Positions 10,648 to 60,763 of a DNA stretch of 64,000 bases are shown here, one piece after another. The DNA comes from Candidatus Sulfomarinibacter kjeldsenii (GTDB lineage: Bacteria > Acidobacteriota > Thermoanaerobaculia > Thermoanaerobaculales > Sulfomarinibacteraceae). The stretch is taken from assembly GCA_014764485.1 (NCBI GenBank), contig JACXWA010000109.1:12769-76768 (forward strand), given 5' to 3'. The translations under genes were made by a program, and so were the position numbers. The stretch's first letter is position 1. Each line of letters opens with the position of its first letter. The notes beneath the pieces were generated by a model. The model had not been told where the DNA came from and searched no databases. It saw only the letters and a program-made list of their open reading frames with translations.

Positions 10648-12965
<2,318 letters not shown>

Positions 12966-12973
<8 letters not shown>

Positions 12974-14498: not shown

Positions 14499-14501
14499 GT
14501 T

Positions 14502-18156: not shown

Positions 18157-18276
18157 TTCGACAACCGCCCCCGCCGCACCACATCAGTTGCAAAAAGCAG
18201 CAGCCCTCCAACCAACGCGGAAAGTTGGGGAGAAACGCGGCCCGGGAGGCCATCGTCAAAGAATGAAAAATGTCGC

Positions 18277-18292
18277 GGTTTCACGTGAAACA
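18277..18292. promoter_or_regulatory. parS: parS centromere-like site
   Basis: GGTTTCACGTGAAACA matches the canonical TGTTTCACGTGAAACA at 15 of 16 positions. Overlaps the rsmG stop, just upstream of parA. Confidence 0.8.
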
Positions 18293-20745: not shown

Positions 20746-20747
20746 CG

Positions 20748-24299: not shown

Positions 24300-24322
24300 C
24301 CGCTCGTCGTCTTCCCCGCGCC

Positions 24323-24706
24323 CTATCCTGGGCGCGATTCTTGTGTGGCTATTTTCAGCGCACGGTGAACACTCGCCAGGAAATCCTGCTCGAGCTCTGA
24401 CCACGGCGCCGACGCACAGCTCCGCCGTGCGTTGATCACAGTGTCGGCGGGAAAGCCGTCGAATTCGTGCCGGTGGGTTCGGTATAGCTCTCGCAGCCGC
24501 CTTTTACAGCGCGAGCGCACAACCGCACCACCGACGCGACGTGAGGCCGTCACGCCGAACCTTCCTTCGTGTGCCTCCGCTCGCATGAGAAAAACCACCA
24601 CGTGCCGCCCGGCAGCCCGGGCGCCATCCTTGTATACCCTTTGAAAATCGGCCCTTCGCTTGAGCCGAGCCTTTGCTGGGAAATGGAAGCGCTGCTCAGA
24701 CAGCAA
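24323..24706 (-). CDS. rnpA: Ribonuclease P protein component
   Basis: RnpA motif ([12 protein letters not shown]...[17 protein letters not shown]). The ATG of the track ORF lies inside rpmH. The most plausible start is TTG 24706, which overlaps the rpmH stop; start uncertain. Confidence 0.8.
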
Positions 24707-24830
24707 CCCGCTTGCGCCCCTTGCGGCGACGCGCGCGGAGCACACTACGGCCGCCCCGGGTGCGCATGCGAACCCGGAATCCGTGGGTTTTCTTGCGCTT
24801 GCGGTTGTTGGGTTGAAACGTTCTCTTCAT
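24696..24830 (-). CDS. rpmH: 50S ribosomal protein L34
   Basis: Hand translation gives [44 protein letters not shown] (44 aa). Below the ORF-track size cutoff. Classic rpmH-rnpA-yidC order. Confidence 0.92.
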
Positions 24831-24999
24831 GATCTCTCTTTTCCCTAAATATCGGGCGCGTCACGATATCGTAGCTCGACATGGGTGTCAAGCGAGCCTG
24901 GAGGCTCCCCGGATGTGATGGACCCTTCGGTGGTCAGGGCCCCACAAGCATCATCGGGGCGAGGCAGCTTCTCGCCTCCATTTGTGTTAGCGTACTTCG

Positions 25000-26304: not shown

Positions 26305-26543
26305 CCCTGTGTACGATACTTGTGGAAGGCGTGTGGATAGGTTGTGGTCTTCTGCGGAAAGCTGGGGTTTTCCACAATTCGGCACAGCTTCGCACAGCCA
26401 CAATACACAACCGGGCGAGCCATTTAACTTTATTTTTTTGAATTATTTACGAGAAATCTCCGCAGATTCCACTGGCTCGACGACGATGACGATTCATGTT
26501 ATATTTTGCATGAAAAGTACGTCGTCGTCATAAGAAAGGGTGG
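26305..26543. promoter_or_regulatory. oriC: Candidate oriC (DnaA-box cluster plus AT-rich unwinding region)
   Basis: Boxes close to TTATCCACA or its complement: TGTGGAAGG 26321-26329, TGTGGATAG 26332-26340, TGTGGTCT 26343-26350, TTTTCCACA 26368-26376. AT-rich run at 26421-26458. Gene-strand switch at this locus. Confidence 0.6.
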
Positions 26544-27650
26544 GTGATGGAACTCAAGTTGCAACGCAACCTCGTCCTTCAGGAGCTCTCCATCCTGCAA
26601 GGTGTCGTCGAGCACCGGACGACCATACCGATACTTTCGAGCATTTTGGTTGAGGCTGAGGAAAACCGTCTGCGGATGGTGGCCACCGATCTCGACATGA
26701 CAATTGTCACGGAGTGTCCGGCTTCTATCCACGGAGGTGGTCGAGCGACGCTCGAGAGCAAGGTGTTTCAGAATCTGGTTCGTTCTTTACCAGAAGAGGA
26801 GTTCACTCTCCGCCAGGACGGAGATGCGGTAGAAATTGAATGTGGTCGTTTCCACTCCAGAATGGCTGTTTCCGATCCTTCGGAGTATCCGACCGTACCT
26901 GAGGTTCCCCAAGCCGGTGACTACGCGCTTCCGTTGGATCTATTTCAACTGATGTTGGACCGGGTCGCGTTTGCGATCACAAAGGATGATCCAAAGTTTC
27001 AATTAAACGGCGCCCTGGTGAAGCTGATTCCGGGCGAAATCGAAATTGCGGCCACCGATGGTCACCGCCTGGCGATGGTGAGGGCGAAGGCTCCGGGGGG
27101 AGACGCTCCTTTCGAGCAGCAGCTCTTCCCGCGAAAATTACTGGCGGAGTTTTCGCGATTTGGTGACGAAGAGGTACAGATATCTGCAGGTGATAACCAC
27201 CTCGGTTTTCTGATGGGTGAGCGGACGCTTGTATCGCGGATCGTGGAACTTCGGTTTCCACAATACGAACGAGTCATCGTCCGCGACAACCCGAATCGAG
27301 CCCGGGTCGACCGTAAGGAGCTGTTGGCTTCGCTCCGAAGGGTCAGCCTGATGGCGCATGAGAAGGCGCGCGGTGTCAGATTTCGCTTTGACTCAGGGGG
27401 CGAACTAACCCTGGTTTCAATCGGTTATGAGCGGGGCAGCGCAGAAGAGACACTCAACGTGACCTATCAAGGAGATGGCTTGGAAATTGCGTTGAATGCC
27501 AGTTATCTCATCGATGTACTGCAGGCACTAGAGTGCGAAACTGTTGAGCTCCAGCTGCGGGATAGTAATACCCAGTGCGTGGTGGTGCCGGTCGAAGACG
27601 ATCCTCGCCTCGAGGAGTACATCTACGTGCTGATGCCGATGCGTTTGTAG
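26544..27650 (+). CDS. dnaN: DNA polymerase III beta sliding clamp
   Basis: 368 aa. Beta-clamp family; GTG 26544 or ATG 26547 start; dnaA-dnaN-recF-gyrB order. Confidence 0.93.
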   Translation: MMELKLQRNLVLQELSILQGVVEHRTTIPILSSILVEAEENRLRMVATDLDMTIVTECPASIHGGGRATLESKVFQNLVRSLPEEEFTLRQDGDAVEIECGRFHSRMAVSDPSEYPTVPEVPQAGDYALPLDLFQLMLDRVAFAITKDDPKFQLNGALVKLIPGEIEIAATDGHRLAMVRAKAPGGDAPFEQQLFPRKLLAEFSRFGDEEVQISAGDNHLGFLMGERTLVSRIVELRFPQYERVIVRDNPNRARVDRKELLASLRRVSLMAHEKARGVRFRFDSGGELTLVSIGYERGSAEETLNVTYQGDGLEIALNASYLIDVLQALECETVELQLRDSNTQCVVVPVEDDPRLEEYIYVLMPMRL

Positions 27651-27756
27651 GCGCGGCGCGCGACACAAAATGGTGTCCCCCGCTCTGATTCAGCCGCGTG
27701 GCGAATAACAGCGTCAAGCGAGCAAACCAGAAACTGGCAAGGACGGTACGTTTGCT

Positions 27757-31267
<3,511 letters not shown>

Positions 31268-33799
31268 ATGGCCGATCAGTCGTCTCCGCCCCGCGCCGAC
31301 CGGGTGCATGTGACCATAGAGGAAGAGCTCAAGAAGTCATATCTCGACTACGCGATGTCGGTGATCATCGGTCGCGCGCTGCCCGATGTGCGAGATGGAT
31401 TGAAGCCGGTGCATCGGCGGATTCTTTATGGCATGTGGGAGGGTGGCAGCACCGCCTCGCGAGCCTATAAAAAATCGGCGCGGATCGTCGGTGATGTCAT
31501 GGGTAAGTACCACCCTCATGGGGACCAGGCGATCTACGACACCGCCGTCCGCATGGCCCAGGACTTCTCCATGCGCTACCCCCTGGTCGACGGCCAGGGC
31601 AACTTCGGTTCCGTTGACGGAGATTCGCCGGCGGCGATGCGGTACACCGAAGTTCGGTTGACCCGGGTGGCGGAGGAACTACTCGGCGACGACATCGCAA
31701 AGGAAACGGTGGAGTGGGCGCCCAACTACGACGGCTCGATGAGCGAGCCAACTCTTCTCCCGGCGCGCATTCCCAATCTTCTGGTCAACGGCTCCTCTGG
31801 AATCGCCGTCGGAATGGCCACCAACATCCCCCCCCACAACCTCAGCGAGACAGTAGACGCAGCGATTGCTCTGCTCGGCGACCCCGAGCTCACCGTTGAA
31901 GATCTGATGGGCTTCGTGCCCGGGCCCGATTTTCCAACTGCCGGATTTATCCTTGGCCGCAAGGGGATCTACGATGCCTACACGACGGGTCGCGGAATTG
32001 TGCGCATGCAGGCGCGGACCCGCATCCGGGAAGCCGAGAAGAAGAAGCGGGCTGCGATCATCGTCAGCGAGTTGCCGTACCAGGTGAACAAGGCGCGCCT
32101 GGTCGAACAGATCGCGACCTTGGTCCAGAACAAGCGCCTCGAGGGCATCGCGGATCTGCGTGATGAGTCCGATCGAGACGGCATTCGGGTAGTGATTGAA
32201 CTCAAGCGCGATGCCGTACCCGAGGTCGTGCAGAACAACCTCTACAAGCTGACCCAGATGCGGACCACCTTTGGAATCAATCTCCTTGGGGTCATCAACA
32301 ACCAGCCCAAAGTCTTCAACCTCAAAGAGCTGTTGCAGCACTTTCTCGACCACCGCCGCGAGGTCGTCGTGCGCCGCACGGCCTACGACCTTTCCCGCGC
32401 CCGCGACCGCGTCCATATTCTCGAGGGCCTGGTCATTGCCCTTGACAACCTCGATGCCGTCATCGCCCTCATACGAGGCGCGGCGGATCCCGAAGCTGCG
32501 CGAGGCGGGCTGATGGAAGAGTTTGGCCTTTCGCAGGTCCAGGCGCAGGCAATCCTCGATATGCGGCTGCAGCGCCTGACCGGGCTCGAGCGAGACAAGA
32601 TCATCGAAGAGCACGCCGAGGTCCGCAAGCTCATCGCCCACCTCGAGGCGGTCCTTGAGTCCGACGTCATGGTGGCCGAGATTATCGCAGAGGAGCTTGC
32701 CGAGGCGAAGAAGAAGTACGGCGACTCGCGGAGATCCGAGATCATCGAAGACCCGAGCGAGATCTCAATCGAGGATCTGATCGCCGAAGAGGAAATGGTA
32801 ATCACCGTCTCCCGCGGCGGGTACGTCAAACGCTCCGCCGCTGCGACATACCGCGCGCAGCGGCGCGGTGGCCGTGGGCGCCGGGGCATGGGGATCAAGG
32901 ACGAGGACGAGGTCTGGAAGCTTTTCGTCGCCTCTACCCACGCAACGATGCTGTTCTTCACGTCGACCGGGCGAGTCTTCGTGCGTAAGGTCCATGAGCT
33001 TCCAGATGTCGGCCCCACGGCCCGCGGCCGCAACCTTGTGAACCTGCTCCAGCTCGCCCCGGGCGAGAATGTGCGGGCACTGCTGGCAGTCAGGGATTTT
33101 TCGGAACATGAAGATTCGTTCCTCTTTTTCGCAACACGCCTCGGGAGGGTCAAGCGAACGCCTCTTCGTGAATATGCCAACATCCGCGCGAATGGCTTGC
33201 GGGCAGTGGTCATCAACGAGGGCGACAATCTTCTCTCGGTACGCCTGACCGATGGCGCCACCCACGTTTTTATGGGCACGAATCGTGGAATGGCGATTCG
33301 CTTCGAGGAGACCGATGTCCGATCGATGGGTCGAGTCACTGCCGGCGTGCGGGGCGTCAATCTCCGCAAGGGAGACTTCGTAGAGGAGTTCGCCGCCTTC
33401 GATCCGGCCGAAGAAAACGACATCTTGGTTGTGACCAATCTCGGTTACGGCAAGCGCACCCAGATTTCCGAATTTCGCATTCAGCGGCGGGGCGGTTTTG
33501 GTATCAAGCTCATCCAGCTGACCAAGAAGAACGGAGAAGTGGCCGCAATCCGTTATGTCCGCGAAGAGGACGAAATCCTTGTCGTTACCGAGGGTGGGAT
33601 GATGATTCGGACCAATGTCGCCGGGATTTCACGCTATGGTCGTGCCGCCCAGGGTGTGCGGGTGATACGCCTCGCCGAGGGCGATCGCGTGGTGTCGGTC
33701 GCGCGGGCGGAGGCTGTTGAGGACGAGGATGACGACTTTGAAACCGAAGAGGTGGTAGACAACGGAGACGAGCGGCCCGCTGCCGAGAGCCCGGAGTAG
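31268..33799 (+). CDS. gyrA: DNA gyrase subunit A
   Basis: 843 aa. Active-site region AAMRYTE and GyrA-box beta-pinwheel repeats. Confidence 0.97.
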
Positions 33800-35913: not shown

Positions 35914-36667
35914 AGATGTTCTGGTCCATGAAGAGAACCGAAGCATTCACCGATTGGTGATGGACCACGGGCCGAACGCGCTCGATCCAGCGCTCATGTC
36001 GGCCCTGCGGAAGAGTCTCAGCCGGCTTGCCGAGGACGGCGCACCATGTGTTGTTCTCGCCTCCTCTCACCCAACCCTTTTCTGCCCAGGCTGGAACCTC
36101 AAGCTGCTAGCCCACGCAGACCGCGACGAAGTTGGTGAGTTTCTCCAGGCCTTCAATACGCTGATTCTGGATCTGTTTTCGTACCCAGGCCCGACCGCGG
36201 CTGCAATCGGCGGCCACTCGGTAGCGGCAGGCTGTTTGGTCTCACTTTGCTGTGACTTGCGGGTCATGGCGACCGGACAGGCCAGACAAGGTTTGTCGGA
36301 GCTCAATCTTGGTGTGCCCGTTCCCGGGAGTTGCCTGCGGATGATGCGGGCCCGCCTCAGCTCTCCCGCTCTTGATGAACTCGTTTTTCGTGGAGAGGGA
36401 TGTACCGCAACCCGTGCGCGGGAACTCGGGATCGTGCACCGCACTGCGGCCGCCGCGGACACTCTGGCGGTGACCGAACTCGAGCTCGGGAAGCTGGCCG
36501 GACGCCCTCGTCAGGCATTTGTAGAGTCGAAGCGGTTCCTCTTTGGCGATACGTGGGAAGCCATGCGGCGCGGAGCGCCGGACGAAGACGCCGCATTCCT
36601 CGACTGTTGGTTCCAGAAGGAAACCAGGGAGCGGATCGCCAGCGTAGCCAATCAGCTTCGCCAGTGA
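35906..36667 (+). CDS. Enoyl-CoA hydratase/isomerase (crotonase) family protein
   Basis: 253 aa. Crotonase fold motifs (FCPGWNL, IGGHSVAAGCLVSLCCDLRV). Start overlaps the pdxT stop by 8 nt. Confidence 0.8.
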   Translation: MAKDVLVHEENRSIHRLVMDHGPNALDPALMSALRKSLSRLAEDGAPCVVLASSHPTLFCPGWNLKLLAHADRDEVGEFLQAFNTLILDLFSYPGPTAAAIGGHSVAAGCLVSLCCDLRVMATGQARQGLSELNLGVPVPGSCLRMMRARLSSPALDELVFRGEGCTATRARELGIVHRTAAAADTLAVTELELGKLAGRPRQAFVESKRFLFGDTWEAMRRGAPDEDAAFLDCWFQKETRERIASVANQLRQ

Positions 36668-37611
36668 CGGGAAATGACCGTCAGCTCGTGGTAGATCCTC
36701 GGATCGACCGCGCGGTGGCGCACATCCACAGCCTCCCACTACGGTGGTCTGATCGGGACGAAGGTGACACCGAAGAGTCCGTTCTCGCCCGCGGCTGGTT
36801 CCGGGGCGCTGGCGAGTGTGCTCGGGTCCTCGCTACCCAGGCGCGGCTGGAGATCGGGGAGGGCCGGGGATTCGGGGCGAGTTGGCCGATCCTGAGGCGC
36901 GGGGCCTGGACTGTGGCGCCAGCCATGCCTGTGGCCTTGGGCGGGGATATGGCAGTTGGTATTGACGGGGAGTATCGGGACGATTCGGCGGGTGTGTGGC
37001 GTGAGGCCGGGGGCGCCGAAGACCTTTTTCTGACTCCCGATCCGTTGCAATCCGCACCGGGGGCGCCATTCGATCTTCTGTGGTTTGGCGACTTCGAGCG
37101 ATTTCTTTTGCGTAAAGGGACGCTTGAAATCGAGGATCTTTTCGGGGTTCTTCGAGTCCCGGCGAACCCGCGGCTACTGGACCGCCTTCTGGTTCGCTCT
37201 CGACGCAAGGAGGACGGAGTCCTGGTTGATTTGCCGATGATCGACGGATCTGGACCTCAGACAATTGAGGTGCGGCGCCCCGAAGATCTCAACCGTGGTG
37301 ACGACTGGCGCAACCCCTCGACCTTTCTTGAGGCGCGGGCCGATATCGAGAGCGCCCGATCTCGAGGGGCGACCATCGAGGCGCAGGTCATAGGCGGCGC
37401 AACCGCGATTTTCGAGCATGATGACGATGAGGACGGATGGCGTTTGAGGCTCAGAGACGGGCGCTATGTCTTTACGGAGATCCGTGTTGCCCGTCGTGCG
37501 AGGACGCTCAGCCTTTGCACAACACTCGATGGCGAAATAGACGCCCTGGCGCCGGGTATGCGTGGGAGGCTGGTTTTCGACCTCCGCGCCGATCTCGTGA
37601 CCCTCGGTTGA
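36664..37611 (+). CDS. Hypothetical protein (orphan, no domain recognised)
   Basis: The 5' part of the 403-aa track ORF overlaps the crotonase gene out of frame. The likely start is GTG 36664, forming a GTGA overlap with the crotonase stop. Acidic, with no TM helix or motif I recognise. Confidence 0.5.
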   Translation: MTGNDRQLVVDPRIDRAVAHIHSLPLRWSDRDEGDTEESVLARGWFRGAGECARVLATQARLEIGEGRGFGASWPILRRGAWTVAPAMPVALGGDMAVGIDGEYRDDSAGVWREAGGAEDLFLTPDPLQSAPGAPFDLLWFGDFERFLLRKGTLEIEDLFGVLRVPANPRLLDRLLVRSRRKEDGVLVDLPMIDGSGPQTIEVRRPEDLNRGDDWRNPSTFLEARADIESARSRGATIEAQVIGGATAIFEHDDDEDGWRLRLRDGRYVFTEIRVARRARTLSLCTTLDGEIDALAPGMRGRLVFDLRADLVTLG

Positions 37612-43165: not shown

Positions 43166-43648
43166 TCACGCGGCGCCGTCCACCACTGCGGCTGCTGCGG
43201 CCAGGCGGAGCGCCGAGCCCCGCCCCCCGATGATTCCCGAAAGACCGAAGGTTCCAACTCCAACCAAAGCGGCCACCAACACCCAGAAGACACGTTGCGG
43301 CCGAACCGCCTCCGAGAAGCTGATCCCTGCAAGCAACATCCCGGGAGTCGCTTGACGGACAACAACAAGGACAGCTGCTGAAAACAACCACCACACAACC
43401 CCGAGCGCAGCGGCCCAAACAAACGCCGGCAGGGCCGGTCGTTCTCCAAGCACAAGAATGGCAATGAGTGCGCCGGTGCAAACAGCCAGCATCCCCACAA
43501 GATCGGCCCAGGAGGAGGCAATTACGGTAAGGGCTGGCGGCAGATCATGGTTGTGGGGCGGCAACGAAGAGCGCTCGCGGCTGATCTCGGTGGGTCGCTC
43601 GACCAGCGCATCCCAGTCACCGGGCATGGTCTTTCGATCGTCGGTCAT
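43166..43648 (-). CDS. Putative RDD-family membrane protein
   Basis: 160 aa with about 3 TM helices. The motif RQATPGMLLAGISF resembles the RDD-domain GxTxGxxxxGxxV loop. Start forms an ATGA overlap with the TPR gene stop. Confidence 0.45.
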   Translation of the reverse strand: MTDDRKTMPGDWDALVERPTEISRERSSLPPHNHDLPPALTVIASSWADLVGMLAVCTGALIAILVLGERPALPAFVWAAALGVVWWLFSAAVLVVVRQATPGMLLAGISFSEAVRPQRVFWVLVAALVGVGTFGLSGIIGGRGSALRLAAAAAVVDGAA

Positions 43649-45801
43649 CGATCGGAGAGACTTCCGATGAAGATTTCCAACTGCATGTCAATCGGACGCG
43701 TTTTGTACGTTTCGACAAACTCCAATATGCGCGGAATCTCGCCATCCTCGGGCTGGCGTTGCTGGAGCTCGGTGAGATAGGACTCGGCGTTCGAAAGGTT
43801 GAATGCGCGGAGCTCCGCTAAGGCGGCGTTGAAAAGGAAACGGTCCAAAGCTGCGTCCACCTCAGAATCGTCTGGGCGCTTTGCCAGCAACGCCTTCGAG
43901 AGGTTGATTGCAGCCTGATGATTGCCTGTCTTGACGGCGCCATAGAGATCCACAGCAACCGGCTCCACCTCGAGGATTCGTTGTCGAACGTCCTCGAGGC
44001 CCGGGTCGTTTGGGTGGGCCCTGAGTTCGGACATGACGCGTTCGTAGGCCGCCATCCAACGGCCTTCCTCGAGGAGCTCGCGACACGTGGTCAGACCTTC
44101 GGGAATGGGGGTGGGAACCGGGGTCGCGATTGCTGCCCGGTATTCGTTGAGAGCGCGGTCGATTCGCGTTTGGAATGGATCATCGGCCGAATTCTGCTCG
44201 AGGTGAAGAATCGCCTCCTCAACCCGCTTCTGGTTGTACATCACCTCCGCCTCAGCGAGAACCCGGCCGACAATGTTGACTCGCTGTTCAGCCTCCGGGG
44301 CGGGCGCAAAGAATCCACCGAACCACATTGCGACTCCCAAGATCACAATGCCTGCCCCACCGATCGCTGCCCATAACTGCCAGGAGAATTTGCGTTTGGG
44401 TTTTACAGGCGCTCGCCACGCGGCTTCTGACGCTTGTGGCGGGCCAGGGGCGGCTTGGCCGAAATCTGCGTTCGCCTCGAACTCTTCTGTGAAGAGATCG
44501 TCTTCCAATTCGGGCATCGAGCCGTCTCCGGCAGACTCGCTATTATCGGGGTGAGTTCCGCGCTGAACGGCTTCCTGGATGCGGATGGCCTCAACGTTAT
44601 TCGGGCTGAGTTCGAGGGTTCGCCGAACAAAATCCGCTGCCACCTCGAGGTCTCCGTTGAGGTGCGAAGAGCGGGCGTCAGCTAACATCGGCTCGATTCG
44701 GCGCTCGATCTCTTCCTTACTGTGCCGAATGTGCTCGATGCGGTCCAATGCCTCTTCATTCGTGTGGTCGATGAGCAGAATTCTCGACCACGCGTCGATT
44801 GCGGCGGCGAAGTCATCCTCAGCCGCGGCGGCACCGCCTTTGGTGAGTAGATCGCGAATGACCGCCGAAGTGTCACTCGGGTCGACCGTGACCTCCTCAG
44901 AATCTCCCGCCGACATCGTCGGCCCTGTTTCGAACAGGCCCTCTTCGGCCACATCCGCCTCTTCGTAATACGCATCGGTCGATGCCGGAGGTTCGGGAGC
45001 CGCCGTGGCCGGCCCCGGAGCGGCCGAGACGTGCTGGGGCGGTGGGCCCGGCTCGGGATCTTCTGCAGACCTCGCTTCCTCTAAGCTCGCGCCGCTATCC
45101 ACTCCAATTGTTGGGCCATTGTGTTCGGGCTCAGAAAAAAGATCTGAGGAGCCGACCGCGGGTTCGAAGCCGCCGATGTCCGGCTCGCCGGAGTCCGCCG
45201 GGGCTTCCTGTTCTTCCCCAGCAGAGCCGGCCTGATCGAGCGACACGTTTCCGGCCTGCTCAATCTGCGCGATGGTCTGAGCAATCTCGCTGTGGTGGGG
45301 GTCGAGAGTCTGTGCCATCATCACGAAATTGGCGGCTTCCTGCGAGTCACCGCGTGCGAGGGCATCACGCGCCTGTTGGAGAAACTGACCAACCTGTGAC
45401 GAGCCCTTTGTTGCGTTTTCGAGCTGCGAAAGGAGGAAGCGTGCCTCTTCGTGGCCTGGAAGATCGAGCAACACCTGTTCAACCTTCGCTCGTGCACCCT
45501 CAAAATTACGCTCGTCGTACATCTCCACAGCCTCCACCAGCAACGTGTTGATGGTCTCGGTAGTCGGAGCCTGGAGCTGTGACAGTACGGCGTTGAGATC
45601 AATCTCCGCCGCCCCCGAAGACAGTTGCTGATGTAGGTTTTGGGCCGGTGCGTAGGCGGGATCGAGTCGGAGTACGAACTCCAAGCCGATGAGGGCTTCC
45701 TCTCGATTTCCCTGTTGGAGTTTTTCCACCACCTGTTTAAAGGCGGTCATCACGCGATCCTGGGCCTGGGGAGAGAGCTCGGTGTTGCCGGGATACGCCA
45801 T
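43645..45801 (-). CDS. TPR-repeat protein with a central TM segment
   Basis: 718 aa. TPR-like helical repeats at both ends, an acidic low-complexity middle, and one hydrophobic helix (WQLWAAIGGAGIVILGVAMWF). Confidence 0.7.
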   Translation of the reverse strand: MAYPGNTELSPQAQDRVMTAFKQVVEKLQQGNREEALIGLEFVLRLDPAYAPAQNLHQQLSSGAAEIDLNAVLSQLQAPTTETINTLLVEAVEMYDERNFEGARAKVEQVLLDLPGHEEARFLLSQLENATKGSSQVGQFLQQARDALARGDSQEAANFVMMAQTLDPHHSEIAQTIAQIEQAGNVSLDQAGSAGEEQEAPADSGEPDIGGFEPAVGSSDLFSEPEHNGPTIGVDSGASLEEARSAEDPEPGPPPQHVSAAPGPATAAPEPPASTDAYYEEADVAEEGLFETGPTMSAGDSEEVTVDPSDTSAVIRDLLTKGGAAAAEDDFAAAIDAWSRILLIDHTNEEALDRIEHIRHSKEEIERRIEPMLADARSSHLNGDLEVAADFVRRTLELSPNNVEAIRIQEAVQRGTHPDNSESAGDGSMPELEDDLFTEEFEANADFGQAAPGPPQASEAAWRAPVKPKRKFSWQLWAAIGGAGIVILGVAMWFGGFFAPAPEAEQRVNIVGRVLAEAEVMYNQKRVEEAILHLEQNSADDPFQTRIDRALNEYRAAIATPVPTPIPEGLTTCRELLEEGRWMAAYERVMSELRAHPNDPGLEDVRQRILEVEPVAVDLYGAVKTGNHQAAINLSKALLAKRPDDSEVDAALDRFLFNAALAELRAFNLSNAESYLTELQQRQPEDGEIPRILEFVETYKTRPIDMQLEIFIGSLSDR

Positions 45802-53769: not shown

Positions 53770-54528
53770 TCACGCCAGGATTGAGTACCCCCCATCAATG
53801 ATCAACGTTTGGCCGTGGATCATGGATGCATATTCGGTACACAGGAATACAACGACGTTGGCGACATCCTGTGGATGAACGAGACGACCGGCTGGGGTGC
53901 GCGCTCGGGCGCTCTCCAGAAGCTCCTCGCGGTTCGGAAAATGGAGCAGGGCATCGGTGTCAACCGTGCCCGCCGAGACGGCGTTGATGCGCATGCCCTC
54001 GGGCGCGAACTCAGCCGCCAGGTGCCGCACCATCGACTCCAATGCGGCCTTCGATGCACCAACGGCTGTGTAATTTGGAATGGCTCGCAGCGCCCCGAGA
54101 GAAGACACCGCAACCAGGATTTTCTCTTCAGTTGCAGAAAGTTTCAGGAACTGCTGGGTAATCGGTAGAAGGGCAGCGGCATTGATATGCATCGCCCAGT
54201 CAAAGTGGTGCATCGTGAGTTCGCGAGCTGGTTTGAGAACTCCGGAAGCGGCGTTCGATACCACGATATCGAGCCCCCCCCACTCCTCGCCGATGGTAGA
54301 AAAAATGCGTTCTACATGGTCTGGATTTGCAACGTTGCCCTTGAGGACAAGGGCCCTGACCCCGCGCGCTTCGATTTCCTGTGCCGTTTCCTCGGCACGG
54401 GTTCGATTGCGAAGGTAGTTGATAGCGACATCAACCTTAGAATCGGCCAACGAGAGGGCAATCGCCCTACCGATGCCGCGAGAGGAGCCGGTCACCAGGG
54501 CGCGCTTGCCGCGGAGTTTGAGATCCAT
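53770..54528 (-). CDS. fabL: SDR-family oxidoreductase, FabL-like enoyl-[acyl-carrier-protein] reductase
   Basis: Motifs TGSSRGIG, NAASG and Y..K (YTAVGASKAAL). Long stretches resemble Bacillus FabL as I remember it (DTDALLHFPNREELLE, TPAGRL). ATG 54528 follows GGAGG plus 5 nt and is preferred over GTG 54546. Confidence 0.65.
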   Translation of the reverse strand: MDLKLRGKRALVTGSSRGIGRAIALSLADSKVDVAINYLRNRTRAEETAQEIEARGVRALVLKGNVANPDHVERIFSTIGEEWGGLDIVVSNAASGVLKPARELTMHHFDWAMHINAAALLPITQQFLKLSATEEKILVAVSSLGALRAIPNYTAVGASKAALESMVRHLAAEFAPEGMRINAVSAGTVDTDALLHFPNREELLESARARTPAGRLVHPQDVANVVVFLCTEYASMIHGQTLIIDGGYSILA

Positions 54529-54666
54529 TTGCACCTCCAGGGTCACAAACTAACCCGGTAATGGCCGGAAAACAAGCGTAGAAAGGGGTTTTCTGGTGAT
54601 TTTTCCTTGACAGTTCGGGGGTAAGGCGGCCAATATATGGTGTACAACAAAAACCAGGAGGTTCCT

Positions 54667-54960
54667 ATGAACAAGACCGAAATGGCGATGAAGCTAGCGA
54701 AGAAGACCGGTGTCAGTCAGGGAAAGGCGGCGGAGATCATCGACACGATGTTTTCGGCCCACCCGCGCAAGGGCCTTATTGCCACTGCCCTGGATGCAGG
54801 TGAGAAGGTGACGATTCCCGGTTTCGGGACCTTTGCAACGAAGCATCGCGGTGCCCGCCAGGGCCGTAACCCCGCGACCGGAGCAACGATCACGATTCCG
54901 GCCAAGAAGTACGTCCACTTCAAGCCGGGCAAGACCCTCCGCGAGCGCGTCGAGCACTAA
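54667..54960 (+). CDS. hup: Nucleoid-associated DNA-binding protein HU
   Basis: Trimmed to ATG 54667, preceded by AGGAGG plus 5 nt. HU signature GFGTF...R.GRNP.TG. Confidence 0.9.
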   Translation: MNKTEMAMKLAKKTGVSQGKAAEIIDTMFSAHPRKGLIATALDAGEKVTIPGFGTFATKHRGARQGRNPATGATITIPAKKYVHFKPGKTLRERVEH

Positions 54961-55039: not shown

Positions 55040-55071
55040 GAGGCCGGGCTGATGCCCGGCCTCAGTTTTTT
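55040..55071 (+). terminator. Rho-independent terminator downstream of hup
   Basis: Perfect 10-bp stem GAGGCCGGGC-TGAT-GCCCGGCCTC followed by AGTTTTTT. Confidence 0.8.
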
Positions 55072-55085
55072 GCTTTCCAAGAATC

Positions 55086-57020
55086 CTATCTGTCGGTGAA
55101 ATCGTAGCGCGCGGAGATTGAGAAATGAGTCTTGACTGGCACGCCGTTTTTACTGCCGGGTTTGAAGCGGTATTTCATGACCGCGTCCATGACAGCCTGA
55201 GGAATGCCGAACCCTTCGTGATCTGCCCGCAGGATCGTAACGTCCTCGACGAGACCTTTGGCGTTGACAGTTGCTTGGAGGACCACAACTCCCTTCCGTC
55301 TCGAGAGAATTGCAGTGCGGGACCATGTGACCGGAGATTTTTTTAAGATCGCCGGCGGTGAGTCCACCTCGGTTGGATCGACGAAACTATTTTCCTCAAC
55401 CGAAGGACCCGCCCTTTCGACCGCCTGTGGCCTTGGCGTCGGTGCCTCTATCGGGATTGCAGTTGGCGCGGAGGTCGGGGTCGGTGGAAAGGTAGGCGTG
55501 GAAGTTGCCGTCGTCGCCGCCAAAGTTGCTGCCTCGACCGCCGCGGTGGCTGTTTGGCGCGCCATAGCCTGCTGCTGGGCCTCCTCAGTGGCAAGAAGGC
55601 GTTCCGCCTCCAGCTCTGCTTCGCGCTGTCGTTGGGTTTCCTCCTCGGTCGCAATCTGCCGTTGCAGCTCTTCGAGTTTTTGCGCGTCCTCACCGGTCAA
55701 TTGCCCCTGCTGGGCCCGATTTTCACTCTCAGTGAGGCGCCGCTGTAGCTCGTCTATCTTCGCTTGGCGGGCCACGAGTTCCCCGCGGATCTCCTCCTCC
55801 TTCTGAGCCATCATCTCCGCGACCAGACCCTCGGCCAATTCCCTCATTTTTTCATTCTGTGCCAGTCGTTCAGCTGCAATCGCTTCGGCAGTCGGCATTG
55901 GCGGCGGAGGAGGGGTTGTCGGGCCGCGAAAGACAGTCAGCCAGAGCATCGCTGCAATCGCGGCCGCGCCAGCAACGCCGAGACCAATCCACAGACCGCG
56001 ACCCTTGAGCGCAGGGCCTGAGTCGATGGAATCAAGGACAGGCTCTGGTGTCACCGCGGGGGCTAGATACGGGCCGACATCTGTTGCCAGCTCGCTTGCG
56101 AAGTCGGCCTCTTCTGCCTCGATTTCGGGGCGAAAAAGGCGATCCATGAAGAGCGCGAGATTAAAGGTCGTTGGACTGTAGCCGCCACCATAAAGAAGAC
56201 GGCCAAGCTCTTTCTTGAAATCTGCGGCCGAACGGAAGCGCTCCTCTGGGTGCGGGGCGAGGGCCCGCTGAAGGAGTTCCCTGATGTCGTCCGGGATAGC
56301 TTCTTCCTCAAACGCAAAATTCGCGGCGGCGATCGCGCCTGCGCGTTCATCGATCGCCGTCGGCAGAGTCGCTCCAGTGAGCAGGTGAAAGAGAATAGCT
56401 CCAAGTGAGTACACATCTCCTTGCCGACTCGCCACCCGGGTCTGCAAGACCTCCGGCGCCAGATAGGGTTGGATAACATCGGCTGAGAACTGGTCATCGA
56501 TCAATGTCAGCAGCTGCTCAGCAACGCCGAATCCGGTGACAATCCCCTCGCCGTCGTTGGTTACGAAGACCAGGCTCGGATGCAAGAAACCGTGCACCAC
56601 CCGTTCGCCATCGATCTCTGCAGTCAATGTTGCAGAAAGGGCGAGCGCGATCTTTTCGGCAATCAGGAGGGCGTTGTCGACCGAAATCGGGAACTGTTCC
56701 TTGGTAATGTGGTCCAAAACCCTGCTCAGCGGCTGCGAAGCTACGAAGTCGGTTGCCATTGCCGGTGTGCCGTCGTCGACCGCGAAGTCTGCGCGCGCCA
56801 CGTTTGTCGACTGGACGGCGTCCGCAATGGCGTTGGCGCGGTCAAATCCAGCGATGATGTCGGCAGCCTCAATGATCGGCTGGTCGAATACCCTCAGCCA
56901 GACAGCTCGCTGAACACCTGAAGCATCGATCTCGCCAGCGCGGTAGAGATGACCCAGAGGATCGGAGACCACCTCCTTAAACCGCAGATACGATGCAAAT
57001 ACACTGTAGGCCTCAGCCAT
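55086..57020 (-). CDS. Pseudokinase (degenerate Ser/Thr kinase fold)-TM-coiled coil-TonB C-terminal domain protein
   Basis: Kinase subdomains VIII/IX are retained (YLAPEV, DVYSLGAILFHLLTG). HRD is HGF, DFG is GFG, VAIK-Lys is Arg, and there is no Gly-rich loop. TM helix LWIGLGVAGAAAIAAMLWLTVF, a Q/E-rich coiled coil, a P/T-rich linker, and a TonB_C-like end (GVVVLQATVNAKGLVEDVTIL...YRFKPG). ATG 57020 follows GGAGGA. Confidence 0.75.
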   Translation of the reverse strand: MAEAYSVFASYLRFKEVVSDPLGHLYRAGEIDASGVQRAVWLRVFDQPIIEAADIIAGFDRANAIADAVQSTNVARADFAVDDGTPAMATDFVASQPLSRVLDHITKEQFPISVDNALLIAEKIALALSATLTAEIDGERVVHGFLHPSLVFVTNDGEGIVTGFGVAEQLLTLIDDQFSADVIQPYLAPEVLQTRVASRQGDVYSLGAILFHLLTGATLPTAIDERAGAIAAANFAFEEEAIPDDIRELLQRALAPHPEERFRSAADFKKELGRLLYGGGYSPTTFNLALFMDRLFRPEIEAEEADFASELATDVGPYLAPAVTPEPVLDSIDSGPALKGRGLWIGLGVAGAAAIAAMLWLTVFRGPTTPPPPPMPTAEAIAAERLAQNEKMRELAEGLVAEMMAQKEEEIRGELVARQAKIDELQRRLTESENRAQQGQLTGEDAQKLEELQRQIATEEETQRQREAELEAERLLATEEAQQQAMARQTATAAVEAATLAATTATSTPTFPPTPTSAPTAIPIEAPTPRPQAVERAGPSVEENSFVDPTEVDSPPAILKKSPVTWSRTAILSRRKGVVVLQATVNAKGLVEDVTILRADHEGFGIPQAVMDAVMKYRFKPGSKNGVPVKTHFSISARYDFTDR

Positions 57021-57104
57021 CACGATCCTCCTGGTCCGCCCATCTCACTACCCAACGCAGCGACAAAGGCGAACCTCGAACGTACCACCCCGCGCCGCGC
57101 AAGG

Positions 57105-58106
57105 TCAACGACGAGAGCTCATAAGTCGAGCCACTGCACGATTATGCTCGCCAAGGGTCTTGGAGAACGCGTGGCCTCCCCCGGGTTTGGCGACGAAGTA
57201 GAGGTATGGCGTAGGCTGTGGGTTGATGGCCGCCGCCAGGGCAGCGCGGCCGGGAGAGTTGATCGGGCCCGGCGGGAGTCCTGGATAACGATAGGTGTTG
57301 TACGGATCGTCCACCTCCCAGTGAATCCGCAGGAGTCGCCCTCGCCACTCACTACGACGTTTGAGGGCGTAGACAACGGTTGGGTCGCACTGCAGAAGCA
57401 TGCCTTTGCGGAGCCGGTTGGCGAAGACACCGGCAACCAGAGGGCGCTCCTCATCAAGCGATGTCTCGGCTTCAACCAGCGATGCGAGAGTGACGATCTC
57501 AAGCGTCGAACCCCAGAGGGCGTCAGATTTCTGTGCCTCCTCCGTCCAAACCTCTTCGAACCGTTCCACGAGATGATGAGCCGCCCGAACGGCCGGAATC
57601 CCGACTGCAAAACGGTAGGTGTCCGGAAACAAAAAACCCTCGAGCGAAGGAGCGTTGGCCGCGAGGTCTGAAATCCACTCTATTTGTTGACCGAATCCCA
57701 GCCATTCATCTGCCGTCCCCAAACCGAGGCCTGAAAATTGCTCGCCAATCGTCGCGAGGTCGTTGCCCTCGACGACTGTGACGCTGAACATCTTGACTGC
57801 ACCTTCGAGGATCGCCTCGAGAGCATCCACCGGTCGGCTTGCGGGAGGGAATTGATAGTGTCCGTAGTAGAGCGCTTTTCCGGAAGCCTGCGTTTTCAGA
57901 TAGATTCGGCCGGCGAGTACCGACGGCAGCAAATCCTCCGCGTGGAGTTGGGCCAGAATTTCACGCGCTGTTGAGCCCGCAGCAATTTCTATCTCGGTTG
58001 ATTGCAACGAGCGCGTTCCCCAGAGGCTACGATGGAACCACAGCCCTCCAGCAACGACGAGAATCGAGGAAAGAACAACTGTGGCCGCCAACGCCCGTTT
58101 CATCAT
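57105..58106 (-). CDS. mltG: Endolytic murein transglycosylase MltG (YceG family)
   Basis: 333 aa. N-terminal TM and conserved YceG core (ASLVEAE, VFANRL, LQCDPTV, YNTY...GLPPGPI.NPG). Confidence 0.9.
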   Translation of the reverse strand: MMKRALAATVVLSSILVVAGGLWFHRSLWGTRSLQSTEIEIAAGSTAREILAQLHAEDLLPSVLAGRIYLKTQASGKALYYGHYQFPPASRPVDALEAILEGAVKMFSVTVVEGNDLATIGEQFSGLGLGTADEWLGFGQQIEWISDLAANAPSLEGFLFPDTYRFAVGIPAVRAAHHLVERFEEVWTEEAQKSDALWGSTLEIVTLASLVEAETSLDEERPLVAGVFANRLRKGMLLQCDPTVVYALKRRSEWRGRLLRIHWEVDDPYNTYRYPGLPPGPINSPGRAALAAAINPQPTPYLYFVAKPGGGHAFSKTLGEHNRAVARLMSSRR

Positions 58107-58115
58107 GGGAGTTCC

Positions 58116-58535
58116 TCAGCTCTCCGCGGGGGGAGCCGCCGGACGGGAGGCGAGGTGCTCCTCGAGGAGCACCTGGGCTGCAATGTCATCCACCGGTTGG
58201 CGAGGGGGGCGCCCTGCGGCGCGCGCTCGCCGCCGCGCTTCGTTTGTGGATAGAAACTCGCTCTGCAGCGCAACCTCGACGCCGAGAGCTTCAAGGGCTT
58301 CAGCGAGTCGGTCTGTACGTCGCGAGGCGGGTCCGCGGGAGCCGTCCTCGAGGGTCGGCAGACCGAGGACGACTCGTGCCGCACCGACCTTCGAGGCCAA
58401 GGATGCAATCTGTTGTGCCGCCCGATCAACACCCGCGTAGGGCACAATCTCGAGCGGTGACGTCACACCCGTGGTGTCGTCTCCTATGGCGAGACCCATA
58501 CGCTGCCCTCCAGGATCAACTCCCAAATACCGCAC
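58116..58535 (-). CDS. ruvX: Putative pre-16S rRNA nuclease / Holliday junction resolvase-like RuvX (YqgF)
   Basis: Trimmed to GTG 58535 (VRYLGVDPGGQRMGLAIGD), giving about 139 aa. The longer track ORF would overlap the divergent lptD. Confidence 0.85.
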   Translation of the reverse strand: MRYLGVDPGGQRMGLAIGDDTTGVTSPLEIVPYAGVDRAAQQIASLASKVGAARVVLGLPTLEDGSRGPASRRTDRLAEALEALGVEVALQSEFLSTNEARRRARAAGRPPRQPVDDIAAQVLLEEHLASRPAAPPAES

Positions 58536-58633
58536 CCGCCCATTGTACGCAGTATGAGCATGCGTGAGCAGGGCGAAGAACCAATCCGACCGGCTACAAT
58601 GTGCGAGGAACCGCGCATGCCGCCAGGAGGTCC

Positions 58634-60763
58634 ATGACCCACCCCAATCCGACCTTTTCGTCCGCCGGGTGGCGGGTGACCCTGATCGCGTTGGCGCTGG
58701 TTGGGTTGTCAAGTTTTGTGAGTGCTGCTGACGAAGAGGAAAGAGTGGTCCTCCTCGCAGAAACTCAACTTGGCACAGCGGAAGGCTGGCACGGAGAAGG
58801 AGAGGTCCAGATTGTTTATCAGGACATCGACATTCGCTGTGACACGGCTGATTGGAACCGAGCCACCGGCGAAGTCATTGCGCGGGGGAACGTGATCCTC
58901 GACCGCGGACCGAGTCGTTTCACTGCAGACGAGGCGCGGTTCAATATTCAGACCAAGACTGGCACGTTCTTTAACGCCACAGCCTTCATCGATCCCATGT
59001 ACACCTTCACCGGCCGCGAGATCGAAAAGCTCGACGAGACCCATTACCGTATCGACCGGGCGACATTCACCACCTGTGCCACGGACGGAAAGCCACCGTG
59101 GAGCTTCCACGTTCGTAAGGCAAAGGTCGAGCAGGAGGGCCTCGGGCGCTTTTCGAGCTCGGCGATGAAGATTCGCGGCGTCCCGGTCTTCTACATGCCC
59201 TACATGGTGTGGCCGATCAAACAGGAGCGTGCGGCTGGTCTGTTGTTTCCCCGGCTCGGATACTCGAACACGAGGGGGTTCAATTTTGGGCTGCCCCTCT
59301 ACATCCCGATCGGCCGCAGCTACGACACGACAATCTTTGCCGACTACTATGCAAAGGGTTATTTCGGTCTCGGCAACAGCTGGCGATGGGCGCCGGTGAC
59401 CGGCGCGCAAGGTGATTTCAACGCTTATGCGATCTGGGACCGCGAGAACGAGGAGGCTCAGTGGAAGGTCTTCGGCAGACATGCCCAGGAAGATTTTCTC
59501 GGCTTCAGGCTCCTGGCGCAGATCGAAAATATGTCCGACATCGACTTCTGGCAGGAGTTCGACCGCAGCTTTGCCGCCAATACCCGCCGCGACCTCTACT
59601 CCTTCGCCTTTCTGACCCGCTCCTTCGGACCTTATTCTCTCAATCTTCGCGCCGACCACCGCCAGACATTTCTGACCACCCAGGAGGTCATCCTCTCCCA
59701 GCTGCCCGAGGTCGAGGTTCGTTCGGGCTCGACCTCGATTGGTGGCTCGCCCGTTTACCTCAATTTGATCTCATCGCTCAACTACTTCCAGGCTGACCGG
59801 GGGAATGACCTGGTCGGTGATTATGGGCGGGCCGATCTGTTCCCCCAATTCTCCTATACGCTGCCGGGTCCGCCGTGGATTTCGGTGACACCGCGGGTGG
59901 GCGGGCGATTCACCTACTACACTGACCAGTACACCGAGGATCGCCGCGAGTTCGCCGGTGAACCCATCAATCGTATTTACGCCACGGGAGCGGTCGATAT
60001 CGTCGGACCCTCTCTCTCGAAGGTCTTTAATGGGGGCTTCGGTGGCTATAGCAAGATCAAACATCTCATCGAGCCCCGGTTCGAGTATCGCTACCTCACC
60101 ACCACAACCGATGTCACCAGAATCCCTGTCTTCGATGAGGTCGACTCAACTCCCCAGGACGCGAACTTGGTCAACTTCGTGCTCGCAAATCGTCTCCTGG
60201 GTCGTGCCGGGGATGGTGTCGGGACCCGCGAGTTGGGTTCGCTCGAGCTCATCCAGGCCTACTCGTTCGATGCCCCCCTGCACCGCGGCGATGGCGTGAA
60301 CACAAGCCAACTCGGGCCGCTCGGGATGGCCCTGCGGTTAACGCCCTCACAGGGCACCGGCTTCGACGCGCGCCTGTCGTACGATCTGCTCTTCAAGAAC
60401 CTCCGATCGACTTCGCTGGCGGCCTCTCTCATGCGTCCGCTCGGCATGCTTAATCTGACCTGGTACGAGAGCTACAACTCACGTACCGGGGACCGCTTTT
60501 CGTCGCAGCTGCGAAGCCTGGTCGCCTTCCGCAAGGCCGGCTTCCCACTCGATGCCTCGTTCCAAATTGCCTACGACATCGCCAACGATTCTCTCGGCGA
60601 TCAGCGGTATAAGGTGAACTACCAGGGCAGTTGCTGGAACATTTCTGCCCAGTACCGGGATACCAGAATCGGCGCATTCCCGACCCGGGAGATTCTAGTA
60701 GTGATCGGTCTCAGGGGTGTTGGTGCTCTGCCCGAGATCAAGAGCAGCCTTGGCGGCTACTGA
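58634..60763 (+). CDS. lptD: LPS-assembly outer-membrane protein LptD
   Basis: ATG 58634 follows AGGAGG. Signal peptide (LIALALVGLSSFVSA), an OstA-like N-domain, and a large C-terminal beta-barrel region. Confidence 0.85.
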   Translation: MTHPNPTFSSAGWRVTLIALALVGLSSFVSAADEEERVVLLAETQLGTAEGWHGEGEVQIVYQDIDIRCDTADWNRATGEVIARGNVILDRGPSRFTADEARFNIQTKTGTFFNATAFIDPMYTFTGREIEKLDETHYRIDRATFTTCATDGKPPWSFHVRKAKVEQEGLGRFSSSAMKIRGVPVFYMPYMVWPIKQERAAGLLFPRLGYSNTRGFNFGLPLYIPIGRSYDTTIFADYYAKGYFGLGNSWRWAPVTGAQGDFNAYAIWDRENEEAQWKVFGRHAQEDFLGFRLLAQIENMSDIDFWQEFDRSFAANTRRDLYSFAFLTRSFGPYSLNLRADHRQTFLTTQEVILSQLPEVEVRSGSTSIGGSPVYLNLISSLNYFQADRGNDLVGDYGRADLFPQFSYTLPGPPWISVTPRVGGRFTYYTDQYTEDRREFAGEPINRIYATGAVDIVGPSLSKVFNGGFGGYSKIKHLIEPRFEYRYLTTTTDVTRIPVFDEVDSTPQDANLVNFVLANRLLGRAGDGVGTRELGSLELIQAYSFDAPLHRGDGVNTSQLGPLGMALRLTPSQGTGFDARLSYDLLFKNLRSTSLAASLMRPLGMLNLTWYESYNSRTGDRFSSQLRSLVAFRKAGFPLDASFQIAYDIANDSLGDQRYKVNYQGSCWNISAQYRDTRIGAFPTREILVVIGLRGVGALPEIKSSLGGY

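Follow-up and report, generated by a model that had tools for sequence, protein, structure and literature searches.

In Escherichia coli, the N-terminal transmembrane (TM) helix of TonB carries a Ser...His (SHLS) motif that is needed for coupling to ExbBD, and the TM helix of TolA, which couples to the TolQR motor, shares a motif of this type. TonB_C domains bind their partners by beta-strand augmentation, as in TonB, for which peptidoglycan binding has likewise been reported. In this report, we analyze a gene at positions 55086-57020, on the minus strand, of a 64,000-nucleotide (nt) stretch of DNA from Candidatus Sulfomarinibacter kjeldsenii (contig JACXWA010000109.1, positions 12,769 to 76,768); this whole stretch is called the window, and coordinates are positions within it. 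The gene encodes a Hanks-type kinase domain that has lost its catalytic residues, followed by a predicted periplasmic arm that ends in a TonB_C domain. What is new is the combination of these two known kinds of module.

Each half of this architecture has described counterparts. GltJ combines cytosolic adaptor domains, a TM helix, and a TonB-C domain (PMC11135422). In Firmicutes, MltG is a substrate of PASTA kinases (PMC12369325, PMC7011611). EssB/YukC is a transmembrane pseudokinase scaffold, and the MviN pseudokinase, together with FhaA, controls peptidoglycan synthesis (PMC12599244). Work on bacterial pseudokinases has hardly begun; the small number studied so far, such as EssB/YukC and MviN, are hubs of envelope machines. 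The main text of surveys of bacterial kinases and pseudokinases describes seven pseudokinase families, the nearest to our protein being GLW, which is mainly proteobacterial, has G-L-W in place of HRD, and carries no second domain (bioRxiv 10.1101/2025.01.12.632604; PMC12599244). Neither TonB nor Acidobacteria is mentioned in that main text. Our literature searches turned up no characterized fusion of a kinase or pseudokinase to TonB, in agreement with an earlier annotation of this DNA made without database searches (the sequence-only reading), which knew of none.

A conserved pseudokinase domain

The mechanical open reading frame (ORF) of the gene spans 55086-57023 (minus strand) and starts at GTG 57023, one codon ahead of ATG 57020. 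Because a Shine-Dalgarno-like AGGAGGA (57026-57032, minus strand), read directly in the sequence, lies 5 nt before the ATG, and because nearly all close homologues are 644 amino acids (aa) long, we take the complete coding sequence to be 55086-57020, with its stop codon at 55086-55088 and a product of 644 aa. The sequence-only reading had used these same boundaries. Residue numbers below follow the 645-aa frame that starts at GTG, and ranges marked "aa" follow the 644-aa protein; all features of the gene lie on the minus strand.

The N-terminal domain (56193-57020, aa 1-276), predicted to be cytoplasmic, has a Hanks kinase fold. Pfam Pkinase (PF00069) matches residues 79-264 (E=4.3e-11; 43.1 bits, cutoff 31.7), a phmmer search of PDB aligns the kinase domain of StkP from Streptococcus with residues 8-274 (E=5e-15), and the NCBIfam PknB_PASTA_kin model matches the domain at E=2e-16. 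A first AlphaFold run that used 30 close homologues modeled the kinase part poorly, with a predicted local distance difference test score (pLDDT) below 50, and was superseded for this part by an AlphaFold2 model of residues 1-345 that used 121 diverse relatives (pLDDT 94.4; predicted TM-score, 0.90). Foldseek matches the latter model to PknA, PknB, Stk1, PknI, and Nek kinases (E~1e-12; TM-scores by target, 0.72-0.77). Landmarks of the C-lobe are retained, namely the APE motif (189-191), the alphaF Asp (203) in DVYSLG, and the alphaH-I Arg (R262).

The catalytic machinery is gone. The Gly-rich loop, the beta3 Lys, the alphaC Glu, the HRD Asp, the catalytic-loop Lys/Asn, and the DFG Asp are all absent. 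In the phmmer alignment with StkP, HRDLKPQN is replaced by HGFLHPSL and DFG by GFG, and the alphaC Glu lies opposite a gap. The position of the Gly-rich loop reads D-P-L-G-H-L. The beta3 Lys position falls on W42 according to phmmer and on R44 when MAFFT is used to align the protein with PknB. The sequence-only reading had proposed a Lys-to-Arg exchange here; the loss of Lys stands in both registers, but the Arg belongs to only one of the two. Its broader claims for this domain (a kinase fold, retained C-lobe landmarks, and replacement of every catalytic residue) agree with our analysis: independent alignments concur on the catalytic positions with no motif mis-registered, and, of the checks that it had suggested, the profile searches place both Pkinase and TonB_C above curated cutoffs and the structure models show both folds. 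Judged by its sequence, the domain belongs by fold to the Hanks-type kinase superfamily, but is a predicted pseudokinase rather than an active member. Identification as a defense kinase (MADS6, PglW, PD-T4-6, or MkoA) was considered and rejected as generic kinase-domain similarity far under curated cutoffs. For example, the NCBIfam models for MADS6 and PglW score 87.6 bits (cutoff 460) and 38.9 bits (cutoff 990). PADLOC matches are confined to the kinase domain, and the surrounding genes are core housekeeping genes, not defense genes.

The protein belongs to a family that is large, old, and undescribed, and that spans at least three acidobacterial classes. A word-indexed search yielded 670 relatives; the best 120 of these are mostly full-length, show the same three Pfam matches, and carry names that include Acidobacteria, Thermoanaerobaculales, and Candidatus Sulfomarinibacter. 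A scan of genome contigs with this single protein gave three loci, and the window itself is nearest to metagenome-assembled genomes of Sulfomarinibacteraceae. When 1.84 billion representatives were searched exhaustively with HMMER, at least 199 clusters, formed at 50% identity, matched at E<1e-30; about 30% identity across the whole length is common among them. Among 70 diverse representatives, TonB_C was detected in 67 and Pkinase in 59. All named members come from Acidobacteriota: Thermoanaerobaculia (including the cultured Thermoanaerobaculum aquaticum), Holophagae (Holophaga, and Geothrix with WP_306599986.1), and Vicinamibacteria (HXK11912.1). Neither domain of the Geothrix protein reaches its Pfam cutoff, and the annotation reads "hypothetical." Elsewhere in public annotation, members are called "TonB family protein," "energy transducer TonB," or "serine/threonine protein kinase," so that the architecture is already visible in databases, though misnamed. 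Two side observations concern the makeup of the family. A subfamily (P0231/P0232, at L008:8001-10055 and L093:8001-10064 of related loci) keeps the pseudokinase and a PTTFNLAFF motif described below, and has no detectable TonB_C domain. Also, PF28533 is listed in the precomputed Pfam annotation of two relatives (P0309 and P0376).

Loss of the catalytic residues is a property of the family as a whole. Eight positions (W42, R44, D47, H144, G145, P149, L151, and G166) are invariant in 117 close relatives. For the catalytic columns, we used 113 distant representatives with about 30% identity. The HRD Asp column contains Asp in none of the 113, with F in 56, A in 21, and L in 14; the HRD Arg is replaced by Gly in 108; at the DFG Asp, 96 have Gly and 3 have Asp; and the beta3 Lys column has Arg in 68 and Lys in 2. 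The residues that replace the catalytic ones are thus themselves conserved, and are mostly hydrophobic or aromatic.

This pattern bears on whether the domain might retain some activity by other means. Some proteins classed as pseudokinases have proved to be enzymes, SelO and SidJ being precedents (PMC12599244), and the domain might analogously be a noncanonical kinase, a SelO-like AMPylase, or a SidJ-like glutamylase that employs other residues. In keeping with this idea, H144 hardly varies, and R28/A29, located where the Gly loop used to be, show more than 90% conservation family-wide. However, H144 is the structural His of HRD, every classical catalytic element is gone, with mainly hydrophobic residues (W, F/A/L, L/F, G) in its place, and no alternative acidic/basic constellation is conserved family-wide; H148, for example, is V/I/T in distant members. 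We therefore regard an atypical enzyme as very improbable.

Comparisons with five orthologues gave ratios of nonsynonymous to synonymous substitution rates (dN/dS) of 0.12-0.19 for the whole protein, with 0.12-0.17 in the pseudokinase and 0.03-0.27 in TonB_C. Each domain is under purifying selection. Because the dead motifs are conserved and dN/dS is low, the domain is a long-standing pseudokinase and not part of a decaying gene. An evolutionary relic, that is, a functionless kinase gene in decay, would also be expected to have lost every catalytic residue, but it would not account for the low dN/dS, for replacement residues that are invariant across hundreds of sequences, or for a full-length architecture kept across three acidobacterial classes; we assign this explanation a negligible probability.

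The best-conserved region of the protein is one that the sequence-only reading had overlooked. Directly C-terminal to the kinase fold lies an extension that is a hallmark of the family (YGGGYSPTTFNLALFMDRLFRPEIEAEE...; 56088-56192, aa 277-311), defined by its conservation and by the AlphaFold model. At residues 278-298, it contains the motif LLYGG(A/G)YSPTTFNLALFMDRLFR, which is invariant in 117 of 117 close relatives. A distant form, Y-x-PTTFNLAFF-x-x-LFR, is present in 89 of the 113 distant representatives, or in 107 with a relaxed pattern. Identity over the motif is 85% among close relatives and 48% among distant ones, versus 32% for the kinase fold. The motif is also specific, in that 547 of 600 metagenome stretches that contain it encode relatives of the protein. 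AlphaFold2 models the segment as helices with pLDDT above 95. We take the motif to be the functional core of the cytoplasmic module; it could serve as a docking surface or a latch. More speculatively, its invariant Thr-Thr might be a helix N-cap, or a phospho-acceptor fitting the pT-x-x-L preference of FHA domains.

The membrane helix and the predicted periplasmic arm

A poorly conserved juxtamembrane linker, predicted to be cytoplasmic (55998-56087, aa 312-341), connects the post-kinase extension to a single TM helix, GLWIGLGVAGAAAIAAMLWLTVF (55929-55997, aa 342-364). This helix, which corresponds to the only hydrophobic segment in the protein (residues 343-365), is weakly conserved and has neither His nor Ser, and a His at any position in it is found in only eight of 114 relatives; the sequence-only reading had likewise noted a single TM helix that lacks His. 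We infer that the protein is a bitopic inner-membrane protein with its N terminus inside and its C terminus outside.

The arm that would extend into the periplasm has four parts. Right after the TM helix is a short Pro-rich segment, RGPTTPPPPPMPT (55890-55928); its PTTPPPPPMPT, immediately C-terminal to the helix, did not figure in the sequence-only reading. Next is a coiled-coil-like helix of 128 residues that is rich in A/E/Q/L/R (55506-55889, residues 379-506). It has conserved hydrophobic residues at a spacing of 3-4 and would measure about 19 nm if extended. It had previously been described as a Q/E-rich coiled coil of about 100 aa; its nature was correctly recognized, but its length was underestimated. 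A flexible linker rich in Pro/Thr/Ser/Ala follows (55359-55505, aa 506-554), corresponding to the Pro/Thr-rich spacer noted earlier; its 49 residues (507-555) are 22% Pro and 16% Thr.

The protein ends in the TonB_C domain (55089-55358, aa 555-644), whose identification from the letters alone is borne out by profile searches and structure superposition. Pfam TonB_C (PF03544) matches residues 567-641 (E=2.7e-9; 37.8 bits, cutoff 24.6), and NCBIfam TIGR01352 (tonB_Cterm) scores 28.2 bits, just over its cutoff of 27.1. In the full-length AlphaFold model, the domain has a pLDDT of about 90. It superposes on the FoxA-bound C-terminal domain (CTD) of Pseudomonas aeruginosa TonB (6i97_D) with a TM-score of 0.80 and a root-mean-square deviation of 2.2 A over 89 columns. 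It also aligns end to end with the E. coli TonB CTD, where Y163-P164 of TonB corresponds to W567-S568 here, and to W-P in most close relatives.

These features invite the interpretation that the protein is a true energy-transducing TonB paralogue, which would engage the TonB boxes of outer-membrane transporters and be driven by an ExbBD-type motor encoded elsewhere, with the pseudokinase as a regulatory or localization add-on. The canonical TonB_C domain, the W-P of the relatives, a fold like that of transporter-bound TonB, the Pro-rich segments that flank the helix, and the database names quoted above all favor it. However, the weakly conserved TM helix has no conserved Ser/His motif, and neither the 128-residue helix nor the 340-residue cytoplasmic domain is a feature of TonB. 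Moreover, no exbB/exbD or TonB-dependent receptor gene is adjacent to the gene in any of the relatives' loci inspected individually (in Geothrix, a receptor gene lies about 7.5 kb away), no ExbB, ExbD, TolQ, or TolR was found among the 36 of 54 candidate ORFs of the window that were scanned with Pfam, and the gene has core housekeeping surroundings near oriC. The unconserved, His-less TM helix and the absence of nearby motor genes argue against TonB-like energization, and we consider a TonB paralogue unlikely.

The long helix raises a different possibility, which is that the protein is a TolA-like envelope tether that works together with a Tol-Pal-type system to constrict the outer membrane and keep it intact during division, and that uses its pseudokinase as a divisome-facing adaptor. 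A TM helix, a long A/E/Q-rich helix, and a C-terminal domain with a TonB/TolA fold make up the layout of TolA. Weak matches point the same way: tolA_full over 378-500 (E=0.31), a ZapG-like match in the T. aquaticum orthologue, and LpoB/TolB_N-like matches in a lipoprotein encoded next to one relative. Yet tolA_full scores 10.2 bits, far under its cutoff of 59.45, the match of the C-terminal domain is to TonB_C and not to TolA domain III, the TM helix has no SHLS-type motif, and no tolQ-tolR-tolB-pal genes occur in the window or in the inspected loci. In our view, such a tether is quite unlikely.

Genomic context and proposed role

The gene is the last of three on the minus strand. The order is ruvX, a 9-nt gap, mltG, an 81-nt gap, the pseudokinase-TonB_C gene, and a hairpin. 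The mltG gene (57105-58106, minus strand) encodes an endolytic transglycosylase of the YceG family (TIGR00247, 202 bits; cutoff 103), and no terminator-like or promoter-like site was found in the 81-nt gap; mltG is probably an operon partner of the gene. The maximal ORF of ruvX/yqgF (58116-58712, minus strand; Pfam) ends 9 nt before mltG. The divergent lptD gene (58601-60763, plus strand) was identified with Pfam and NCBIfam, so that all three neighbors named in the sequence-only reading are indeed present. On the other side, a GC-rich hairpin (55040-55063), with a T-run on the plus strand only, lies between the gene and a convergent HU/IHF-like gene (54637-54960, plus strand) and is shared by both.

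A related locus was treated as informative if its upstream sequence covered 1.2 kb or more. In 51 of the 67 loci of this kind, mltG is directly upstream. The ruvX-mltG-pseudokinase trio persists, flanked by unrelated genes, in relatives whose identity is 38%, 32%, and 36%. In the P0231/P0232 subfamily, a HIT gene and then an SLT lytic transglycosylase gene lie downstream on the same strand. An association with lytic transglycosylases and the cell wall recurs but is not universal. A separate observation is that L008:2499-7732, just upstream of a member of that subfamily, encodes an unusual 832-aa protein in which a MurF-type Mur ligase is joined to alanine racemase, as well as an equally unusual 841-aa protein made of two D-Ala-D-Ala ligases in tandem.

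Our preferred reading, which we give a probability of about 55%, is that the protein is a noncatalytic, envelope-spanning scaffold or connector, probably tied to cell-wall growth. A scaffold role had been raised in the sequence-only reading; it is now better grounded by motifs that are dead family-wide, by purifying selection on all domains, and by the recurrent lytic transglycosylase linkage. Most likely, the pseudokinase and its helical extension (Y-x-PTTFNLAFF-x-x-LFR) would together serve a partner in the cytoplasm, either as its docking site or as an allosteric module. The periplasmic arm, consisting of the Pro-rich stub, the ~19-nm coiled-coil-like helix, the flexible Pro/Thr linker, and the TonB_C head, would probably oligomerize and should be long enough to reach peptidoglycan and the outer membrane. 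The head may bind an outer-membrane protein by strand augmentation, or may bind peptidoglycan. With no Ser/His motif and little conservation in the TM helix, a passive role for the arm, as tether or sensor, is more likely than one as a transducer driven by the proton-motive force. The gene context (ruvX-mltG beside lptD, and in the subfamily SLT, ddl, and murF) would point to growth of the cell envelope.

Several points weigh against this reading. MltG of this organism has almost no cytoplasmic tail, and therefore a cytoplasmic interaction with MltG like that of PASTA kinases is not possible. In a sizeable group, to which T. aquaticum belongs, ruvX immediately precedes the gene, without mltG, and the contexts in Vicinamibacteria and Geothrix are unrelated to peptidoglycan. 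Because ruvX-mltG is a widespread conserved pair of bacterial genes, adjacency to mltG may in part be inherited gene order within one class. With respect to energization, the absence of exbBD within a 64-kb window says little about the genome, and the lack of His in a TM helix need not keep a motor from binding it.

A more far-reaching version of the scaffold reading is offered tentatively, as possible rather than probable. The family could provide Acidobacteriota phylum-wide with envelope-spanning signaling that needs neither phosphorylation nor proton-motive force. A dimeric TonB_C arm would sense how wide the periplasm is, or whether it touches the outer membrane or peptidoglycan, and would pass this state across the membrane to the dead kinase. 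The invariant PTTFNLAFF latch of the dead kinase would then recruit or release a cytoplasmic regulator of cell-wall growth, thereby controlling the termination of glycan strands by MltG or other lytic transglycosylases. The protein would then be the diderm counterpart of a PASTA kinase.

The family adds to the known pseudokinases a kinase-dead Hanks domain with a TonB-type arm for docking to the outer membrane or peptidoglycan, encoded by a core gene in three or more classes of a phylum that is major but poorly understood. A true link to envelope growth would reveal how the state of the outer envelope is coupled to the cytoplasm in a diderm that is not a proteobacterium, and would widen the known uses of the TonB_C domain and of the kinase fold. 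Automatic annotation is misleading here, and metabolic reconstructions should count members neither as iron-uptake TonBs nor as active kinases. Cultured hosts exist in Thermoanaerobaculum aquaticum and Geothrix.

Other features of the window and of related loci are recorded here as separate observations. The region 16512-33799 is the chromosomal replication-origin region. It carries dnaA (25000-26304), dnaN, recF, gyrB, and gyrA on the plus strand, and parB, mnmG, mnmE, and yidC on the minus strand; the cumulative GC skew has its minimum at about 24-26 kb, and the G+C content falls to 0.53 at 26-28 kb. The pseudokinase-TonB_C gene therefore sits in core territory. Two genes downstream of it is an SDR gene (53770-54546, minus strand) that matches the NCBIfam FabL equivalog (335.9 bits; cutoff 328) and is kept as a neighbor in close relatives. 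Four long ORFs in the window have no Pfam match at E<=1e-5: 43645-45801 (minus strand, 718 aa), 12624-14657 (plus, 677 aa), 36400-37611 (plus, 403 aa), and 5508-6551 (plus, 347 aa). The two largest have no NCBIfam match either.

In the region 58540-58712, the maximal ruvX ORF and the start of the divergent lptD ORF share about 110 nt, and the Pfam match in RuvX begins only at aa 61 of the 198 aa of that ORF. Probably one or both mechanical starts are too far upstream, and true starts would leave a short divergent promoter region; the true ruvX start is probably near 58530-58540. The mature start of LptD, AADEEERVVLLAETQ (58730-58780, residues ~44-58), reads as an acidic and then a hydrophobic strand and is conserved in LptD orthologues (L001-L088). 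Its ERVVLLAE was considered as a TonB box and rejected: the resemblance is superficial, the pattern being that of the first strand in the LptD/LptA beta-jellyroll, which this stretch most likely is, and it does not count as evidence for contact between TonB_C and LptD.

In Vicinamibacteria (L089:3672-5951 and L092:5618-7882), four small overlapping genes (about 272, 169, 165, and 143-152 aa) form a conserved cluster upstream of the relative. In L092 they directly precede the pseudokinase gene, and in L089 a 37-aa ORF and a 563-aa gene on the minus strand lie between. None of the four matches a Pfam family, apart from one weak T2SSM/PilO-like match. A 494-aa protein with three TonB_C repeats is also encoded near the Vicinamibacteria loci. 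A Pfam scan of the gene upstream of the Geothrix relative was uninformative.

Comparison with described systems

TonB shares with our protein the C-terminal TonB_C domain, a single TM anchor with the N terminus inside, and Pro-rich periplasmic segments. However, TonB has almost no cytoplasmic part, versus a cytoplasmic pseudokinase region of about 340 residues here, and the Pro-rich segments of our protein are interrupted by the 128-residue helix. Its TM helix, poorly conserved and without the Ser/His of SHLS, also differs, as does the lack of exbBD or receptor genes nearby. The "TonB-like" septal protein SjdR of Anabaena was considered as a close comparator and set aside, as it has no real TonB_C domain.

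GltJ and GltG of the Agl-Glt gliding machinery of Myxococcus share more. They too have a cytosolic interaction region, a single TM helix, a flexible periplasmic part, and a TonB-C domain, and they link the cytoplasm to the outer membrane. However, the cytosolic part of GltJ is ZnR-linker-GYF and not a kinase fold, and GltJ works with the AglRQS motor. With Pfam, we found no gliding genes, ZnR, or GYF here, and the NCBIfam AgmX/PglI model (NF033768) scores 15.8 bits (cutoff 40).

The PASTA kinases (StkP, PknB, and IreK) are closest in sequence to the N-terminal domain. Both designs have a cytoplasmic kinase fold, one TM helix, and a wall-facing module, and both are linked to MltG, as a substrate in Firmicutes and as a gene neighbor here. 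In contrast to those kinases, our protein is catalytically dead, has TonB_C in place of PASTA repeats, and occurs in a diderm host. No PASTA repeat is matched by Pfam in the protein, and NF033483 scores 60 bits (cutoff 450).

GLW pseudokinases resemble the protein in having all three catalytic motifs degraded, a bulky Leu/Trp at the beta3 Lys position, and a TM helix C-terminal to the pseudokinase. They differ in that our family has H-G-F at HRD (H-G-[F/A/L] in the 113 representatives), hosts among the Acidobacteriota, and a nearly universal TonB_C domain. PTCK, the family ancestral to GLW, does carry a second domain. The beta3 sequence VWLRV is only loosely similar to GLW, and we set the two families apart by family description, not by sequence alignment.

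Two other transmembrane pseudokinases offer functional parallels. The MviN/MurJ-linked pseudokinase of Mycobacterium (ActPs3 family) is also tethered to the membrane, with all three catalytic motifs degraded and bulky aromatics in the pocket. It is a scaffold for cell-wall synthesis, and the tail that follows its pseudokinase is a functional docking site, a layout like that of our post-kinase motif. However, its family and its phylum are different, it is joined to the MurJ flippase, and its activation loop has a deletion; our analysis gave no sign of phosphorylation or of an FHA partner for the protein studied here. EssB/YukC of type VIIb secretion likewise has a cytoplasmic pseudokinase, a single TM helix, and an extracytoplasmic domain, and is a dimeric hub of an envelope machine that acts without catalysis. 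It differs in its Firmicutes hosts, its secretion-gene context, its extracellular domain, and a much more degraded kinase fold; Pfam finds no YukC match in our protein.

The gene context suggests a kinase-dead equivalent, in a diderm, of either the PASTA-kinase/MltG axis or the MviN pseudokinase of mycobacteria. In its architecture, the protein resembles GltJ most, and in its presumed mode of action, the transmembrane pseudokinases EssB/YukC and MviN.

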